A program made the translations under genes and the position numbers. This document shows, one piece after another, positions 32,535-40,600 of a stretch of 52,750 nucleotides of DNA. The DNA is from a virus (taxonomy: Duplodnaviria > Caudoviricetes). The stretch is from IMG/VR virus record IMGVR_UViG_3300032308_001864, positions 1 through 52,750 of that record. One strand, given 5' to 3'. The first letter of the stretch is position 1. The number at the start of each line of letters is the position of its first letter. The notes under the pieces are model-generated. The model worked only from the letters and a program-made list of their open reading frames with translations, made no database searches and was not told the DNA's origin.

Positions 32535-32933
32535 ATGCCAATAAAAAGAGAAGAATATAATATACTTAGACAAGATATATATAAAAATGTTGGAATAGGT
32601 ATTGAAATACCTTTTTCAGAAGATACCGTTTTTAAAACCACATATTCTTCAAAAGATCAAATTAAAAGTAATCTCATCAATTATTTGTTATCAAATGTTG
32701 GTGAGAGACCTTTTAGTTCATTTGGCGCTAATCTACGGCAGTACATTTTTGAACAGATGGTAGATGAAGAAAGACTTTCTGAAATATTGATTGAAAAAAT
32801 ATATCTATATGTTCCTAATATAACAGTGAACAAAGTAGACGTTTCTAAAATAGAAGAAGATAATTCTTTGGCTATACAGATTTACTATTCTTATAATAAC
32901 ACTAACGATAAAATAGCAATAAAAATAGCATAA
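32535..32933 (+). CDS. Baseplate wedge subunit / sheath initiator (T4 gp25-like)
   Basis: GIEIPF...QIKSNLINYLLSNVGERP..FGANLRQYIFE; start moved to ATG 32535. Confidence 0.92.
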   Translation: MPIKREEYNILRQDIYKNVGIGIEIPFSEDTVFKTTYSSKDQIKSNLINYLLSNVGERPFSSFGANLRQYIFEQMVDEERLSEILIEKIYLYVPNITVNKVDVSKIEEDNSLAIQIYYSYNNTNDKIAIKIA

Positions 32934-34822
32934 TGCCTACTAAAGATATATCATATATTAATAAAGACTTCTCTTCTTTTAAAAATTCGCTAGTTCAATA
33001 CGCGAAAAACTATTTCCCCACGACTTACACGGACTTTTCCGATGCTAACCCGGGTAATATGTTTATTGAGATGGCTAGTTACGTAGGCGATGTTCTTTCT
33101 TTTTATATCGACAAGCAGGTCCAAGAAAATTTCTTGATGTTTGCTCAAGAAAAAGAAAATCTTATATCTTTAGCTTATGCTTTAGGGTACAGACCCAGAG
33201 TAACTTCAACTGCAACGGTTTTTTTGGATGTATATCAACAGGTACCAGCCATAATAAATGGCGGGGTGGCTTCTCCTGATTATAACTATTGTTTAATCGT
33301 AGATAAAGAAACCAAAGTTAGATCTTCTGATGCTTCAAATACTGTTTTTATAACAGAGGATTTAGTTGATTTTAGTTTTTCTTCTTCTGCCGATACCACG
33401 AACGTAAACGTTTACCAAATAAATACTGTAACAAATCAACCAGATTACTATTTGCTGAAAAAATCAGTAAAAGCTATTGCGGGGACTATAAACACGGCAT
33501 ATTTTTCTTTTGGTAATCCGATTAAATTTCAAAGTATAACAATAGATGATGAAAATATCATTGAAATATTAGATGTAGTTGATAGCGATGGTAATAAATG
33601 GTATGAAGTACCTTATTTAGCTCAAAATACTGTTTTTGAAGAGGTCAGGAACACCGAATTAAATGATCCTTTTCTTTCTCAGTATAACAATACTACGCCA
33701 TATCTTTTAAGAACTCGAAAGGTTCAACGTAGATTTACCACAAGATTTGATTCTAACAATAAATTAACAATAGAATTTGGGGCGGGTATCATAAATTCTA
33801 ATGATGAGGAAATTGTTCCTAATTCCGACAATATAGGCATAGGTTTAATCGATAGTATAACTAAATTAAACACCGCATTTGACCCAGCAAACTTTATGTA
33901 TACTAGGGAATACGGTCTTGCTCCTTCTAATACAAATTTAACTATACGATATATATCTGGTGGTGGTGTATCAACCAATGTTCCTGCAAATAGCATTACA
34001 CAGATATATGAAATGTCTTTAAACACTGTTTCTTTAGTGCAATCAACATTAAATCAGCAATTATTAAACTATGTTAAAAATTCAATTGCTTTTAATAATG
34101 AAAATCCTTCTTCTGGAGGGGGTGACGGTGATAGTATAGAAGATATCAGGCTTAAAACAATGGCTAATTTTCCTACTCAGCTTAGGAATGTTACCAAAGA
34201 CGACCACATGATAAGAGCTTTAAGCATGCCCTCCAAGTTTGGAATGTTATCTAAAGTATATGTGGCACAAGATTTAGCTTTAGGAGAGTATGATAAGCAA
34301 GAGGATTTTATAAATAGTAACCCTTTATCTCTAAGTTTTTATGTTCTTTCCTTTGATTCGGATAAAAAACTAACAAAAGCTTCTCGTGCAATAAAAGAAA
34401 ATCTTAAAAACTATATTGGGCAATATAAAATTTTAAGTGATGGTATAAATATAAAAGACGCGTACTATATAAACGTAGGAGTTAATTTTGATATAATAGT
34501 ATTACCCGCATATAACAGTCGAGAAGTATTAAATCAAGCCTTATCTAGCGTCAAAGACTATTTTAATATAGATAAATGGCAAATAAATCAACCTATAATA
34601 CTATCAGACATTTATAATCTTTTAAATGCTGTACAAGGCGTGCAAAGTGTTGTAAAAGTTGATATAACAAACAAATATGGTGTTGTAAATGGGTATTCAG
34701 AATATGGATACGACATAAAAGGTGCGACAAAAAATAACATAATATATCCAAGTTTGGACCCGGCAATTTTTGAGGTGAGATATCCTAACAACGATATTTA
34801 TGGTAAGATAATAACATACTAA
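32933..34822 (+). CDS. Baseplate wedge protein (T4 gp6 / baseplate J-like)
   Basis: YINKDFSSFK...YTDF...PGNMFIEMASYVGDVLSFYID, ALGYRP, IEFGAG, SSGGGDGDSIEDIR...QLRNVTKDD. Confidence 0.93.
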   Translation: MPTKDISYINKDFSSFKNSLVQYAKNYFPTTYTDFSDANPGNMFIEMASYVGDVLSFYIDKQVQENFLMFAQEKENLISLAYALGYRPRVTSTATVFLDVYQQVPAIINGGVASPDYNYCLIVDKETKVRSSDASNTVFITEDLVDFSFSSSADTTNVNVYQINTVTNQPDYYLLKKSVKAIAGTINTAYFSFGNPIKFQSITIDDENIIEILDVVDSDGNKWYEVPYLAQNTVFEEVRNTELNDPFLSQYNNTTPYLLRTRKVQRRFTTRFDSNNKLTIEFGAGIINSNDEEIVPNSDNIGIGLIDSITKLNTAFDPANFMYTREYGLAPSNTNLTIRYISGGGVSTNVPANSITQIYEMSLNTVSLVQSTLNQQLLNYVKNSIAFNNENPSSGGGDGDSIEDIRLKTMANFPTQLRNVTKDDHMIRALSMPSKFGMLSKVYVAQDLALGEYDKQEDFINSNPLSLSFYVLSFDSDKKLTKASRAIKENLKNYIGQYKILSDGINIKDAYYINVGVNFDIIVLPAYNSREVLNQALSSVKDYFNIDKWQINQPIILSDIYNLLNAVQGVQSVVKVDITNKYGVVNGYSEYGYDIKGATKNNIIYPSLDPAIFEVRYPNNDIYGKIITY

Positions 34823-34833
34823 AAATACAATTT

Positions 34834-35376
34834 ATGATTTTTAACAGCGCAGGACATAACCCAAAAGGGATTAAAGTAGACCCAGGAGCATCCGGTTTTG
34901 GTTACAATGAAGCACATTTGGCATGTATGCAGCGTGATGCTGTCAATGCTGAATTAGATAAGAAGAATGTTAAGTATATTTCAGATAAAGACGACGAAAC
35001 ACTATCTGATTATCTTAAAAGAATACAGACAGGAGAAGGGTCGGTGGTACTAGAGTATCATTTTGACGCTTTTAATGGTAAGGCAAGTGGTGCTACAGCC
35101 TTAGTTGGCAGCGACGCTGATAGATTAGACAAGATGTTTGCCAAAGAATTGGTTGATACTACCTCTACCATTTTGGGTATACCTAATAGAGGCGTAAAAA
35201 GCGAGTCTGAAAGCCATAGAGGAAGACTAGGTTTAATGCGCGAACAAGGTACAGTATCTTTAATTGAAATATGTTTTATTGACAATAAGGCAGATTTAGA
35301 TAAATGGTTTGCCAATTATGGTAAATTAGCTAAAGCCTATGCTGATATTTTGATAAAATATGAAAATTTAGTTTAA
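34834..35376 (+). CDS. N-acetylmuramoyl-L-alanine amidase (Amidase_3), catalytic domain only
   Basis: SAGHN..., DPGA...NEA, LEYHFDA, LIEICFIDN give the H-E-H zinc ligands and the catalytic E. Confidence 0.9.
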   Translation: MIFNSAGHNPKGIKVDPGASGFGYNEAHLACMQRDAVNAELDKKNVKYISDKDDETLSDYLKRIQTGEGSVVLEYHFDAFNGKASGATALVGSDADRLDKMFAKELVDTTSTILGIPNRGVKSESESHRGRLGLMREQGTVSLIEICFIDNKADLDKWFANYGKLAKAYADILIKYENLV

Positions 35377-35378
35377 TA

Positions 35379-35810
35379 ATGCCTGTATATAAAATTTTTC
35401 CAAGTAAAGATACTACCATTTATTCTGAAAAGAGTACAACCAACACTGGAATGGACGCTATATTGGAATTAACAAAAGAAAAAAGTGTATTATATCCGTT
35501 CCAACAAGTTGGAATAGCCTACATATATGTCGGAACAGACGCTTTTGATGCTAGTTTTGACCCGACTTTCTCGGGGAACCCGGCTTCTACTGGATCTATA
35601 TCTGTTTCTTTGGAGGGTGTACCCTTGGGTTCATATACTGTAAACCCTGCTACTGACACAAATGTTAGTATTCTAGCAACAAACCTGGCTGCTTCAATAA
35701 CTTTAAACAGCTTTACAGCTACCGCCACCAGTAATATTGTAAAAGTTGTTGCACCCAAAACATACGGGAATTATATTTCAGGTAAACAATTAACAATTAC
35801 TATATCATAA
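35379..35810 (+). CDS. Virion protein fragment: N-terminal strands of a DNRLRE-like domain plus an inserted beta-sandwich
   Basis: PSKDTTIYSE..TTNTG.D.ILEL start, then FDASFDPTF and a sheath-insert-like DT...LATNLAASI...FTATATSNIVKVVA segment. Confidence 0.6.
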   Translation: MPVYKIFPSKDTTIYSEKSTTNTGMDAILELTKEKSVLYPFQQVGIAYIYVGTDAFDASFDPTFSGNPASTGSISVSLEGVPLGSYTVNPATDTNVSILATNLAASITLNSFTATATSNIVKVVAPKTYGNYISGKQLTITIS

Positions 35811-35827
35811 TTACAAAAAAATAAACA

Positions 35828-36340
35828 ATGAGTAAATCACGCACAGAACTTTTAACTAACGCGGCTACAATTAAGAACGAAACCACTGCTGCTGCAAATA
35901 CTGCAACAAGAATAGGAACAATGTTTGAAGACATTGTATATAGTACTAACAATACCAATTATACGTATTTTGCAAGATTATCTCAATCATCTACTTCCGC
36001 GCCAGCAGTACAAAGAGTATTCACGGATAATTTATCTGTCGGTGTGCCCGGCGATTTAAATTATACCGCAGTTGTTTATACTAGAAACTCTCCTGGAGAC
36101 TATAAAATTAAAATAAGATCCGCAGTTAGTTCTTCTAAAGTAACAGATGGTTATTCTTATGCGGTGTCTTTTTCTGACGCTAAAGTGAGAATGGTGTCTT
36201 ATACAAATGGGACAGATGGCTCTTATCCGCCAGCTCAATACTTTACAGAATTTAATATCAGGTCATATAATACTTCAGGTTCATTATCGGACGATGTTAT
36301 AAATTTTACTAACGTTTTAATACAATATTACGAATGGTAA
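35828..36340 (+). CDS. Inserted putative fibre/adhesin protein (170 aa)
   Basis: N-terminal IKNETTAAANTATRIG, then YFARLSQSSTSAP...YTRNSPGDY; flanked by ATATCAT direct repeats. Confidence 0.65.
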   Translation: MSKSRTELLTNAATIKNETTAAANTATRIGTMFEDIVYSTNNTNYTYFARLSQSSTSAPAVQRVFTDNLSVGVPGDLNYTAVVYTRNSPGDYKIKIRSAVSSSKVTDGYSYAVSFSDAKVRMVSYTNGTDGSYPPAQYFTEFNIRSYNTSGSLSDDVINFTNVLIQYYEW

Positions 36341-37365
36341 TATCATCATCGTTATTTGCTTTAGGTGACCCAAATACAACTCCGGTAGGCTCTACTGCGG
36401 CTAGAATATTGATACAATTCTCTGATACAGATATACAAGATGTTTATTCAAAATACATAACCGGTAGTGATTATAAGGCGTATTTAAAACTGTATTTAGC
36501 AAATGCTAGTGAAATTCCATCGGATTATACCGTCGTATGTTACCCTTTATACCAAAGTTGGGATATGGGTACTGGCAAGTATGGTAATTATCCCGTTGAT
36601 ATAAATGGTGTTTCTTGGAAATACAGAAACGCGAACTCTACTAATCAATGGCAAGCCAATTCATTCCCAGTTAATGTTACTGCATCATTTTTAACTGGCA
36701 GCGTGGGTGGAGGTGCTTGGTATTATAATTATCCGTCTACACAATCTTTTGGTGTTTATATAGATAAAGATATCACATTGGATGTTACTACAGCAGTCAA
36801 AAACATGGTGTCTGGAACAATATCGAACAACGGTTTTATTATAATGAACTCTGGGTCAATAGAATTTAACGGTAACTACAGTTATGTATTAAATTATTTT
36901 TCTAGAGACACCAATACAATTTACCCTCCAGTATTAGAATTTAAATGGAACAATACTGTTTATACTCCTAACACGGCTTCCATGAGTATATCGACTTCTC
37001 CCGATATTAGATTGTCTTTAAGTAACAATAAAGGCACATATAACCAATACTCGGTAGAAAGATTTAGAATAAATGTTAGAGATCAATATCCTGTAAGAAC
37101 TTTTACTACTTCATCTTTATATACAACACCAAAATATTTACCTAGTTCATCTTACTTTAGTATAAAAGATGTTAAAAGTGATTTGACAGTTATTGAATTT
37201 GATGATAATTATACTAAGATAGGTACTGATAGTAAAGGAAGTTATTTCGATGTTTATATGTATGGACTTGAACCTGAAAGATATTATAAAGTTTTAATTA
37301 AAACTGTAATAGACGGTTCCGTCTTGGTATTTGATAACGAACAATTCTTTAAAGTAATAGAATAA
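36334..37365 (+). CDS. Virion protein: remainder of the DNRLRE-like domain plus C-terminal domain
   Basis: RILIQF...KAYLKLY...YPLYQSWDMGTG...GVSW...LDVTTAV...NNGFII...YFSRDT...PVLEFKW. Confidence 0.7.
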   Translation: MVISSSLFALGDPNTTPVGSTAARILIQFSDTDIQDVYSKYITGSDYKAYLKLYLANASEIPSDYTVVCYPLYQSWDMGTGKYGNYPVDINGVSWKYRNANSTNQWQANSFPVNVTASFLTGSVGGGAWYYNYPSTQSFGVYIDKDITLDVTTAVKNMVSGTISNNGFIIMNSGSIEFNGNYSYVLNYFSRDTNTIYPPVLEFKWNNTVYTPNTASMSISTSPDIRLSLSNNKGTYNQYSVERFRINVRDQYPVRTFTTSSLYTTPKYLPSSSYFSIKDVKSDLTVIEFDDNYTKIGTDSKGSYFDVYMYGLEPERYYKVLIKTVIDGSVLVFDNEQFFKVIE

Positions 37366-37697
37366 TGGGCCAAACTGTAGACGTAAAACGTAAAATATAT
37401 GGTATAAGCACTTTTAAGAACGTAGTTGACGTAACTTTTAATCAATTAGTTCCAAAAGATGCGCCGGTAGTTGTAACAAAGCCTACTAACGTTGATGATT
37501 TTTTTAAAAGTTATGACGAACTTTTTTATGATATACCCGCAGTTGGAGACACTAATTCTCATTTAGAGTTAATAAATAGAAGCTCTGATTACATAGGAGT
37601 ATCTTTAGCTGAATTAGAAGAAGAAATAAAAACTTTAAGACAAGAAAACGTTAGTCTAAAAAATCAATTAGCTACGTTGGCTACAAATAATAAATAA
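37365..37697 (+). CDS. Hypothetical protein with C-terminal coiled coil
   Basis: TAATG-coupled on both sides; LAELEEEIKTLRQENVSLKNQL. Confidence 0.8.
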   Translation: MGQTVDVKRKIYGISTFKNVVDVTFNQLVPKDAPVVVTKPTNVDDFFKSYDELFYDIPAVGDTNSHLELINRSSDYIGVSLAELEEEIKTLRQENVSLKNQLATLATNNK

Positions 37698-40600
37698 TGG
37701 GTGTTTCGATATCAGAATTAAATTATAGTCTAGAAAAATATAATGTAATTGATACCACATTAATTACAACAAAAGATTTTATCCGAAGTTTTGGACAAGA
37801 TATTGACTATATCGAAGCGCATCTTTATACTCAGAATAATACATTAATAAAATCTGATTATAATTTTACATACTATACAGTACCGGGGACACTTCAGGGG
37901 GAAACTGAAACTACTAGTAAGCAAATAGAATTTAAAACTGAGGAATATTTAAAATATCTTGGATACTACCTTGGTTCTTATAAGGTTCAATACAATATTT
38001 TTAGAAAGAAAATTTTCAATACCAATGAGAAACTTTTCTTTGTTAAAGAAATATCTCAAGATAGAAAAGAAATTAGAATATCTACGAATGATATTTCTAA
38101 TAGTGATATTGAATCAGGGGTTTTAAATTTTATTCAAGAATACCAAAGTTCTCCTTATTTCAAGGATTTTAATTTAAATTTTGGTGACAATAATATTGTC
38201 AATGCTGTAAATATAATATTGGATAAAAATACTAATCCGTATTCTATCTTAGTAAAGTTATACAACCCATTACCTTCTGAGTTCGATTTAAAAAGTTCTC
38301 TGTGGTTTGTGGAAGAACTTTCCGACCCACACCTATTTCAAATAGACATATTCCCAGATGTCGTAGAAGAAAAGATACCTTTTTTACGAAACGCAAATTT
38401 TGATATAGATGTTGAAAAAAATTCTATAAAGCCAACTGAATATATAAATAGTCAAAATATTTTGACTAATAGCACCCTATCTGGCTATCAGAAACTACTC
38501 AATGTAACTAATACTACGGGTATAAAAATAAATACTGACTATAGTTTATATGAAAACTTTGTTCATTTTTCTTCTGCTAAACAAAGACTCTTAAACTTTT
38601 TTTACAAGCTTCAGAATATAGAAAACAATCAGAGTAGTATAAATAGTATAAAAAATATAAATAATTATACTATATCATTTAATGTAAGTTCTAGTATATA
38701 CACCTTACAAGCTAAAATAAATGATATTATAAAGAATTTTGACGGATATGAAAATTATTTATATTTTTCTTCTGGTTCCAAGTGTTGGCCAAAATCTGGT
38801 TCGTATGGTTATTATACTAACTACCCAACAACTTCCTCTATTTCAAAAACTTGGTTAGGAAGCGATGATTATAACTCTATATATTATGGGGGGCAACTTT
38901 TTACTGCGTCATACTATGATCAAAATAATCAGAATAACTTAATTAATATTGTTCCCGAGTATATAAAAGAGGATGATATTAATTTTAGTTATGTTTTATT
39001 TTGTAACATGGTCGGTCAACATTTTGACGACATATGGCTTTATATAAAATCTGTTACAGATTTGTATAAAAACACTAATAGTTTAAGTACCGGTATATCT
39101 AAAGATGTAGTTTACTACGCTTTAAAGTCTTTAGGGATGGATACTTACAATTCAAAAAGCGATGATGACATTTATAATTACCTTTTAGGAATTAATCCTA
39201 ATGGTAGTATTCTACCTTTAACTGGTTCAAATCAAACTTTAGTAAGTAGTTCTAATGAATCTATGTCTGGAGAAGACATACAAAAAGAATTATTAAAAAG
39301 ATTATGGCATAATATTTCTCATATATTTAAATCTCGGGGTACAGAAAAAGGTATAGACGCACTGATAACTACATATGGTATACCTGATTCTATTTTAAGT
39401 ACTAATGAATATGGTGGAACTGATAAAACCTCAGCTGTCATAGAATATGTATATGAAAGATTTTCATATGCCCTGGCTAATACCACGTCTTCTTTTGTTA
39501 GAATACCTTGGTTCGCATTATATCAAAATGGATTGAAAGGAGCTGGTTCAGATGTAGTGCCTGATGCCATAGAATTTAGATTTAAACCGGCTAAGAATCT
39601 GATGCCATATTCAGCTTCTCTGTTAGATTTGATGTCTCCGGGTGCAACTACTAGTTCTTTTAGTTTATATTTTCAGCCCAACACAACTAGAAGGTATCCT
39701 TATGCAGATGTAATATTTAGACTATCTGGTTCTTCAGGGTACTATACTTCATCCTTGACGTTACCAATATATTCGACTCAATCAAATGGAGAGACATATT
39801 GGTGGAACGTTCTTTTAAAAAGAAGAACTCAAAAAAATTCTACTTCTAACAATGATGCTCAATATTACGATCTATTTGTAAAAAATAAAATAGAAGGTAG
39901 GATAGGCCATCAAGCGTCAGGGAGTATTTATGTTCCTGTGAACTCGTCATCTTATAATTACTCTTGGACTAGATATACAAACTATCCGGAACTTTACTTA
40001 GGCGGCTTTAGAAATAGATTTAGTGGTTCTTTTCAAGAGTTTAGATATTGGTCGTACCCCATATCAGAGTCATCATTTAACTTTCATGTGCTCAACCCAG
40101 AGTCAATCGAATCATATTCGACATCTTCTACATATGATGATTTAGCCGCACGTTATCCATTAGGTAATAACTTATACACATATAGACATTCTAACGTATT
40201 AATTGTTTCTTCTATCGCTCCAAGTAACATTAATCCAATTTATGTCAACACTTTACTGGATGAAAAAGATATGTTCTTTGGATTTACCGGGAGTAATAAC
40301 TATGTTGCAAATGTGGAGGAATATTATACTAATACACCTAATGCCGCATACTCAACTCCTGTAACTGAAAAGATTAGAATAATAGATAATATTATAACTG
40401 GAAGTCTTTTATCTCCTTTTATAAAAATGGAGAAAAAATCGATCGATCCTCTAACAAAAGATATACATTTTGTAGACGTATCTTTCTCCCCACAAAATGA
40501 AATAAATAAAGATATTATTGCCCATTTTGGTAATAAAGCAGATTTAGATGAATTTTTAGGAGATCCTAAAAATGATTATAAAAATGAATATTCTTTATTA

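Follow-up and report, generated by a model that had tools for sequence, protein, structure and literature searches.

The window analysed here is a virus record of 52,750 bases (IMG/VR record IMGVR_UViG_3300032308_001864; Duplodnaviria, Caudoviricetes) with a guanine-plus-cytosine (GC) content of 31% and an estimated completeness of 29%. Between positions 35379 and 37365 it carries three consecutive open reading frames (ORFs), hereafter ORF A, ORF B and ORF C. ORF A and ORF C encode two parts of a conserved baseplate-associated protein that is made from one gene in nearly all homologues. This report is concerned with the block of DNA that separates the two parts, called the cassette below, with its origin, and with the way in which a complete protein may still be formed. 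Throughout, L-numbers designate contigs or loci, P-numbers database proteins, and X1-X4 the metagenome runs of one study. The features of the locus are as follows.

35379-35810, plus strand: ORF A, 143 amino acids (aa), ending ACT ATA TCA TAA
35379-35498, plus strand: host part 1, codons 1-40 of a protein of about 366 aa with beta strands 1-3, aligning to residues 1-40 of P0004 and P0005 and to the N-termini of the family; border placed to within about 9 nt
35499-35810, plus strand: D domain (first part of the cassette), a putative adaptor or decoration domain of 103 aa, in frame after codon 40 and with its own TAA; GC 39.1%
35802-35808, plus strand: first copy of ATATCAT, inside the cassette and not at its border
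35828-36340, plus strand: ORF B (second part of the cassette), 170 aa, short-fibre-like, placed after a spacer of 17 nucleotides (nt); its N-terminal 40 aa or so are common to phage fibre proteins
36334-37365, plus strand: ORF C, 343 aa, starting ATG GTA ATA TCA TCA
36334-36369, plus strand: ORF C leader (third part of the cassette and right junction), the ATG and about 12 codons (MVISSSLFALGD), with no counterpart in homologues
36340-36346, plus strand: second copy of ATATCAT, within the ORF C leader and inside the insert
36370-37365, plus strand: host part 2, the body of ORF C, with the rest of the CBM96/DNRLRE-like domain and the C-terminal beta-sandwich

The ATG of ORF C overlaps the stop codon of ORF B (ATGGTAA). 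An earlier, sequence-only reading of the locus had started from the two copies of ATATCAT and had noted that removal of the DNA between them fuses ORF A to ORF C. When the sequence was reread, the ORFs, the positions of both copies and the in-frame join were all found as described. Indeed, deletion of 35809-36346 (538 nt) gives ...ACT ATA TCA TCA TCG TTA... in frame, that is ...TITISSSLFALGD, and the predicted A-C junction peptide, be it of such a deletion or of a ribosomal bypass, is ...QLTITISSSLFALGDPNTTPVGSTAAR. The 538-nt stretch was also rightly said to contain one gene, only ORF B having homologues among its ORFs. As to the repeat itself, a 7-mer shared in the same phase arises by chance in 0.5% of pairs of 15-nt sampling windows, 3.0% of 30-nt pairs and 8.0% of 45-nt pairs (pairs 300-1200 nt apart in AT-rich sequence, 20,000 samples each), and the plus strand of the window holds 20 copies of ATATCAT where base composition predicts about 15. 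The repeat is thus somewhat out of the ordinary, although it was singled out post hoc.

The unsplit gene and the borders of the insert

Database searches gave 2,739 homologues of ORF C at E ≤ 0.001. Among the best 120 of these matches, 119 are proteins of 356-397 aa and the remaining one is the window's own 343-aa cluster. In IMG/VR, the N-terminal motif and the body lie in one uninterrupted frame at 53 of the 54 non-self loci (44 complete ORFs and 10 running off the contig; the gene of L011 starts with TTG). The ancestral-type gene is a single ORF of about 366 aa. It is found as a single coding sequence directly after the gene of a baseplate wedge protein in Flavobacterium phage immuto (369 aa) and Microcystis phage Mel-JY01 (386 aa), to whose proteins ORF C is 44.7% and 34.8% identical; identity to the uncultured relative LR756508.1 is 23.9%. 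The expectation that homologues would be single ORFs was thus borne out, both at the 53 of 54 viral loci and in 119 of the 120 best matches.

The nearest unsplit relatives, P0004 and P0005 (77% identity), read MPVYKI...LELxKxxSxLY-(3-12 residues)-STAARxLIQF. They correspond to residues 1-39/40 of ORF A joined to ORF C from about residue 13-19. This alignment establishes an insertion and its borders: the true insert is estimated from it at about 870 nt (about 35499-36369), each border being placed to about +/-12 nt. It contains residues 41-143 of ORF A, the 17-nt spacer, ORF B and about 12 codons of ORF C. The insert is therefore larger than the 538 nt between the 7-mers that had been proposed, and both 7-mers are internal to it. 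Because the real insert is of about 870 nt, the 538-nt deletion does not restore the ancestral protein; the resulting A-C fusion would carry about 115 residues that homologues do not have. At the true junctions, comparison of 35471-35530 with 36341-36400 revealed no shared k-mer of 5 nt or more, hence neither direct repeats nor microhomology. A transposon-like element with target-site duplication was considered and rejected: there are no repeats at the borders, the 7-mers are internal and the unit has no recombinase gene.

The left border falls inside a folded domain. The NCBIfam model DNRLRE (NF033679, cut-off 34 bits) covers residues 10-226 of the unsplit proteins P0037 (47.0 bits) and P0011 (37.6 bits), and scores 22.1 bits, below the cut-off, on unsplit P0005. 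ORF A has no match to this model. ORF C matches profile positions 49-162 only, again below the cut-off (30.6 bits). Judging from this coverage, it takes both ORF A and ORF C to make up the whole DNRLRE domain. P0005 was modelled with AlphaFold2 on an alignment of 57 homologues; the model has a predicted local distance difference test score (pLDDT) of 89.2, with strands 3-6, 8-15 and 28-30 in the part that corresponds to ORF A. In Foldseek searches, the N-domain of this model resembles two solved CBM96-type structures, 8wab_B (E 4.5e-6, template modelling score (TM) 0.70 by target) and 7vbo (TM 0.56); in a library of viral structures, its best matches are uncharacterised phage proteins and phage proteins annotated as CBM96. 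The ancestral product is a conserved baseplate-associated protein made up of a CBM96/DNRLRE-like N-domain and a second beta-sandwich. The earlier proposal that ORF A carries the opening strands of a domain of which ORF C supplies the rest is upheld by the homologue alignment, the NF033679 coverage and the P0005 model alike.

Other irregularities are seen at the same place in the family. Two unsplit homologues (L046 3471-4712, 414 aa; L003 3734-4996, 420 aa) have long in-frame loop insertions, which fall where the window gene is split, after the opening strands, so that this loop tolerates insertions. At L038 (1054-3058), a 313-aa homologue that starts MSVIKNLGG... is without the opening strands, and no ORF resembling ORF A lies in its vicinity. 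An unknown ORF of 118 aa comes before it, and after it an ORF of 237 aa, the start of which, IYKITSPTGKIYIGQS, looks like that of a putative GIY-YIG endonuclease. The 5' end of the split gene seems to be a hot spot of rearrangement.

The cassette and its relatives in other phages

The cassette is foreign in composition, its GC content being 36.2% (39.1% in the tail of ORF A) vs. 30.0% and 32.0% in the two host parts. In an exhaustive phmmer search of 1.84 billion representative proteins, ORF A had 27 matches. One is full-length (P0127, 94% identity), four concern the tail only (P0129, at 8.3e-17, P0136, P0137 and P0140) and the other 22 cover only the first 33-118 residues, the N-terminal region of the host family. 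All four D-family representatives end at, or within 15 residues of, the last column of ORF A (alignment A7), two of them after an extension of 13-15 residues. The D domain, which carries the motif FDASFDPTF, is also found in frame within a 511-aa tail sheath protein of L074, a genome of the Bacteroidia class (E 9.2e-8, residues 55-168; sheath PHROG at 2.7e-33). This was the only D match among the 401 genomes searched. In structure, the D domain comes near to outer domains of sheath, flagellin and cement proteins (TM 0.66-0.78 by query), which are to be taken as leads only.

ORF B has three stand-alone homologues of 166-167 aa (57-64% identity), two of which end ...LIQYYEW or ...LIQYYAW. Its first 37 residues match a tail-fibre N-terminus PHROG (3.7e-4), and its N-terminus also matches longer fibres in L069 (353 aa) and L075 (418 aa). 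Its structural look-alikes are unnamed viral clusters, with H_lectin and gp53-like_C as named leads that score below 0.9 and count as leads only. Pfam and PHROGs gave no nuclease-family match for ORF B, the sole Pfam match being a weak one to Y_Y_Y (0.0053), and for its homologue P0126 NCBIfam gave nothing and Pfam only weak matches, none of them to a nuclease. A PD-(D/E)xK nuclease was considered, as P74-G75-D76 and D117-A118-K119, invariant in the four B homologues, loosely recall the motif; it was set aside as unlikely, there being no family match and the N-terminus being fibre-like. No endonuclease, intein, recombinase or transposase was recognisable in the unit by inspection of its ORFs or by Pfam and PHROG searches. 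Neither ORF A nor ORF B had a tblastn match among 50,697 phage records, and when IMG/VR was scanned for patterns of ORF B, of the ORF A tail, of alignment A7 and of P0137, the window's own lineage came up, or nothing.

A similar arrangement exists in another phage group. The metagenome contig L063 encodes, in this order, a protein X of 151 aa, a homologue of ORF B (166 aa, 62% identical to it) and a protein Y of 128 aa. Residues 42-151 of X are 39% identical to residues 33-143 of ORF A (tblastn 5.5e-20), and the start of Y overlaps the stop of the B homologue (ATGA) in a manner comparable to the ATGGTAA of ORF C and ORF B. The host gene is a different one. A single protein of 176-184 aa, unsplit in four IMG/VR contigs (L070-L073), matches X(1-49) with its residues 1-50 (58% identity) and Y(3-128) with its residues 55-183 (53% identity). 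A more distant phage, L075, has the same upstream gene as L063 (44-45% identity), then a host N-terminus with a D domain, a 418-aa fibre with a B-like N-terminus and a Y-like gene. The donor family is established by these relatives, and comparison of the loci indicates that a block made of D domain and stop, fibre gene and restart either occurs or is missing as a whole in two genes that are not related to each other. Since X of L063 and ORF A end at the same alignment column, the stop codon of ORF A is the native stop of the donor. The ORF C leader was also considered as a conserved end of the cassette, a proposal that was dropped: its similarity to Y of L063 is not significant, 7.7% of 352 N-termini scoring as well.

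These relatives bear on two readings that rely on the 7-mers. In the first, 538 nt with ORF B and the leader region would have entered a continuous D domain at ATATCAT, duplicating 7 bp, and could be removed by recombination to give one long fusion protein. A same-phase 7-mer has a chance of 0.5-3% in 15-30-nt windows, D is continuous in frame inside the L074 tail sheath protein, and in the complex model described below the ORF C leader (residues 2-11) is predicted to lie against D (ORF A 43-52 and 123-142), as a last strand might. However, the 7-mers lie away from the borders defined by homologues, L063 has no repeat corresponding to the ATATCAT pair, and no continuous form of D plus leader occurs among the four D representatives drawn from 1.84 billion proteins. 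Moreover, no joint at the 7-mers was seen in the contigs of four metagenome runs, where rare alleles could escape notice, and the unit is devoid of recombinase and transposase. We consider an excisable cassette of this kind improbable; with internal repeats that are absent from L063 and no joined form seen, this part of the sequence-only reading is not supported.

The second is a programmed ribosomal bypass of 538 nt, from UCA-UAA to a matched UCA, which would yield one A-C fusion. The sites are suited to it on paper: UCA UAA at 35805-35810 and UCA at 36343-36345 provide matching codons, a stop right after take-off and the right frame. A take-off stem-loop is given as a key requirement for bypass in the published account (bioRxiv 10.1101/2022.08.31.505936). 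The region 35785-35845 has none, its minimum free energy being -0.1 kcal/mol (z 0.68), and 133 of 200 shuffled sequences reach the same stability or better. The known gap has 50 nt; the one here is ten times as long and contains ORF B, to all appearances a conserved and separately translated gene; the stop and the start were inherited from donor genes, and the fusion would not recreate the ancestral protein. The likeness to T4 gene 60 thus fails on the missing hairpin, the conserved gene in the gap, the donor-native stop and an ATG-over-stop that recurs in L063, and we give such a bypass almost no weight.

A split intein would offer another way to join the host parts, with the tail of ORF A and the leader of ORF C as intein halves that splice them together. 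Hint domains have an N-terminal Cys or Ser, a TxxH block, a C-terminal His-Asn and a nucleophile at +1. The 103-aa tail has neither Cys nor His, the leader MVISSSLFALGD lacks His-Asn and is followed by Pro, Pfam searches at E up to 1 matched ORF A and ORF C to no intein or Hint family, and D is a decoration-type domain that also occurs in a sheath protein. Only the layout recalls fractured genes as outlined in PMC2677866, with the host N-part plus about 100 aa, a free-standing gene, and a short piece plus the host C-part. With the intein residues absent and no Hint match, this explanation is effectively refuted.

The contexts of B-like N-termini in other phages suggest a role for the motif of the D domain. 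Outside the window lineage, the B-like N-terminus occurs in seven contexts, and in five of these (L062, L063, L064/65, L069 and L075) the protein just upstream contains an FD-type motif (FDxTFDxTF) or ends in one, with one gene in between in L062 and only the half-motif EFDNTFN in L064/65. No FD-type motif was found upstream of the B-like N-terminus in L066 and L068. The carriers vary in nature; that of L064, for instance, is a head closure Hc1 protein (5.8e-30), and that of L062 a tail protein. The FDxSFDxTF motif may dock the N-terminus of fibre B, which would make D a putative adaptor. As a side observation, unrelated virion proteins ending ...F(D/E)xTFDxTFN (L062 3926-4645, L064 41-457, L069 4405-4992 and L075 4010-4519) are followed by a gene with an ...IKNETxxxANTAxRxG... 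start; FD motif and fibre N-terminus may be a portable docking pair in Bacteroidota-type phages.

Persistence of the split and proposed reassembly of the halves

The split is not confined to one assembly. All three ORFs recur in a second IMG/VR contig, L004, where A and B are identical to those of the window and ORF C differs by 17 synonymous and 4 non-synonymous changes. Of the 31 differences between L004 and the window over 7.5 kb, 17 cluster at 36988-37065 (78 nt of ORF C), which suggests a small recombination patch. We also compared contigs of the four metagenome runs over 34800-37700. The X1 contig is identical to the window and may be its source; in X2, the stretch 34800-37207 is covered by a single contig of 3,635 nt, which shows 52 differences but is free of gaps; in X3, there are contigs across both junctions. 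Parts of the stretch have no contig cover in X3 and X4 and are uninformative either way. At this level, no deletion joint was present in the four runs, either at the 7-mers or at the true borders, rare alleles being beyond the power of contigs; the deletion allele for which reads were to be inspected was not encountered in these contigs. The sole joint seen, in a 395-nt contig of X4, leads from 36184 to 36317 and skips 132 nt inside ORF B; it may represent a diverged ORF B variant in a related strain.

An assembly chimera or a sequencing error as the source of the split is very improbable. The window is a metagenomic record with an estimated completeness of 29%, but the same architecture is seen in the second IMG/VR contig and in contigs of X2 and X3 at about 2% divergence and without gaps, and the database holds a 94% variant of ORF A. 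The concern about misassembly raised at the outset has thus not materialised.

Persistence in diverged variants is established as well. The ORF A variant P0127 is 94% identical and of the same length, with eight changes, two of which are in the host part. Read codon by codon, none of the three leader substitutions seen in variant contigs (36351, 36354 and 36357) changes an amino acid. The family's invariant or almost invariant residues, Y4, K5, F7, D11, T13, Y15, S16, N22, G24, D26, I28 and L29, are all present in ORF A. From the pattern of substitutions, the split arrangement appears to be kept under selection.

The complex of ORF C (alignment A5) with ORF A (alignment A6) was then predicted and evaluated by its ipSAE score. 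The A-C model reaches 0.77, while the best of three controls scores 0.00. The mark used was reached by 58 of 80 solved complexes and by 2 of 110 mismatched pairs, a rough calibration here as custom alignments were used. Runs of the A-C model agree in at least 81% of contacts and the partner pLDDT is at least 70. Residues 1-35 of ORF A contact residues 20-30, 88-97 and 198-207 of ORF C, which is their position in the intact fold; the modelled interface also lists the ORF C leader (residues 2-11) and ORF A 43-52 and 123-142. The score shows likeness to the intact fold and not binding in the cell, because a gene's two fragments are apt to score well in this kind of test, the single-chain fold being learnable. 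Within this limit, co-folding of the two fragments, which had been suggested as a check, speaks for reassembly (0.77 vs. 0.00 for the best control).

Our preferred reading is that an adaptor-plus-fibre cassette has split a structural gene, the products of which, ORF A and ORF C, would reassemble as protein, with no need of bypass, splicing or excision. We put its probability at roughly 0.72, in part on the strength of the complex model. Of the earlier proposal of a split protein that reassembles through translational coupling, reassembly is retained as the best reading, in line with the complex model; coupling is plausible, but from B to C (ATGGTAA) rather than from A to C.

The events may be pictured as follows. 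An ancestral single ORF would have stood right after a J/gp6-like wedge gene. About 870 nt from the adaptor-plus-fibre module of another phage group would have landed in the loop after the opening strands, with both junctions in frame. ORF A would then consist of host residues 1-40 and a 103-aa domain ending at its native stop, ORF B of a complete short-fibre-like gene, and ORF C of a restart, some 12 added residues and the remainder of the host protein. In the modelled complex, the strands of ORF A would slot non-covalently into the sandwich of ORF C and thereby plant the adaptor on the baseplate. The adaptor might in turn dock the N-terminus of fibre B, giving the baseplate a new small fibre.

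Decay is the other reading that deserves discussion. ORF C alone may work, or the function may be fading, and the 40 host residues of ORF A would be a relic that provides a start for the captured domain. The 313-aa form at L038 shows that a natural homologue can be devoid of opening strands and of an A-like ORF, and ORF C by itself retains a score of 30.6 bits against the DNRLRE model. On the other hand, ORF A has kept every N-terminal residue that is invariant in the family, P0127 has the same length with only two positions changed in the host part, both non-conserved, the left junction is in frame, and residues 1-35 are placed by the complex model in the sandwich (0.77 vs. 0.00 for the control). 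We regard decay or truncation as unlikely.

Several points weigh against the preferred reading of a cassette whose host halves reassemble. As L038 illustrates, the body may manage without opening strands, and the host part of ORF A could then be a passenger. The model of ORF B is poor (pLDDT 48.4), and its fibre nature rests on the 37-residue PHROG match and on its neighbours. The start of the Y-like gene differs again in L075, so that the right end of the cassette is ill-defined and the leader may or may not have come with it. That the borders match in two genes could be due to selection favouring complete domains and a functional start codon rather than to the ends of a defined element. Finally, either state, split or unsplit, may be the ancestral one within the L063/L070 family.

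A broader idea is that of a portable cassette, in which an adaptor domain with a fibre-docking motif and its small fibre gene could enter, in frame, the surface loops or linkers of virion proteins that are not related to one another, such as the CBM96-like baseplate protein here and the 176-184-aa protein of the L063/L075 group. The host gene would be split, its protein would refold from the two pieces, and the virion would gain a fibre at a site that had none. This is a tentative extension that we think possible, though short of an even chance.

Around the split gene, the window has the following neighbours.

32933-34822, plus strand: baseplate wedge (J/gp6-like) gene, 629 aa; PHROG baseplate wedge subunit at 1.7e-12 and 9.1e-11
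34834-35376, plus strand: N-acetylmuramoyl-L-alanine amidase gene, 180 aa; Pfam Amidase_3 at 8.6e-16, PHROG endolysin at 9.4e-34
37365-37697, plus strand: conserved downstream gene, 110 aa
37697-42937: large downstream gene, encoding a protein of 1746 aa

Downstream of ORF C, gene order is the same as in Flavobacterium phage immuto. Upstream, the gap between the wedge gene and the DNRLRE-like gene is of 5-68 nt in 46 of the 49 related loci measured. At L005-L007, the closest viral loci (57-59% identity), it is of 508-554 nt and may carry another small inserted gene that is not an amidase homologue. The amidase gene, which separates the wedge gene from the split gene in the window, has a homologue at 1 of 54 related loci (L011, 46% identity) and a GC content of 36.6% vs. 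31-32% in adjacent genes; it looks like a second lineage-specific insertion in the baseplate block. A promoter scan gave no signal (17 sites vs. 15.8 +/- 3.9 in shuffled sequences), Bacteroidota-type promoters being outside its coverage. A terminator scan found 4 vs. 1.4 +/- 1.4 in shuffles, with none between A and B or between B and C.

Comparison with known split genes

Split genes of phages mostly encode enzymes of DNA metabolism and are cut by homing endonuclease genes or by split inteins. The locus described here concerns a virion structural beta-sandwich, cut inside its fold by a block that brings its own domain, a stop, a passenger fibre gene and a restart; in a second group of phages, a unit of domain plus fibre interrupts a gene of a different family. 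The literature was searched for phage structural genes interrupted by something other than a nuclease gene; on titles and the beginnings of abstracts, supplements being left aside, no such case came up.

The ancestral protein itself relates to CBM96/DNRLRE domains (NF033679, PF24517; PMC9971899): unsplit homologues pass the cut-off and the model resembles 8wab and 7vbo. It differs in being predicted to belong to the baseplate region of a phage and in having its domain encoded by two genes.

The closest parallel in genetic terms is provided by the genes-in-pieces made by free-standing homing endonuclease genes. These include mobE in nrdA of Aeromonas phage Aeh1, mobA with T4 genes 39/60 and the split gene 43 of phage 25 (PMC2988022). 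In both situations an inserted gene interrupts one that relatives have in a single piece, the two halves persist, reassembly takes place, or here would take place, at the protein level, and an overlap of stop and start suggests coupling. In contrast, the inserted gene is here fibre-like, with no match to a nuclease family (GIY-YIG, HNH, LAGLIDADG, Vsr-like), the insert adds an in-frame domain to the upstream half, and the host is a virion structural protein rather than an enzyme of DNA metabolism.

The bypass of T4 gene 60 (bioRxiv 10.1101/2022.08.31.505936), shares with the present locus matched codons, a stop after the first of them and a mobile insert in a split gene. Here, however, there is no hairpin, the 538-nt gap holds a conserved gene and the joined product is not the ancestral one. 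The locus is a clean counter-example to long ribosomal hops claimed from matched codons alone.

If the halves reassemble and the adaptor recruits the fibre, receptor-binding parts could be added to baseplate proteins without covalent fusion. This would be a natural design for split-protein display on virions, and pipelines that annotate the halves as separate hypothetical proteins would miss their link.

Fractured genes (PMC2677866) have the same three-part layout, and both are found mainly in phages. The difference is that intein residues and Hint domain are replaced here by a decoration or adaptor domain, and that reassembly would be non-covalent. If the portable cassette proved true, it would be a modular route to new host range and the structural-gene counterpart of fractured genes, operating with neither intein nor endonuclease.

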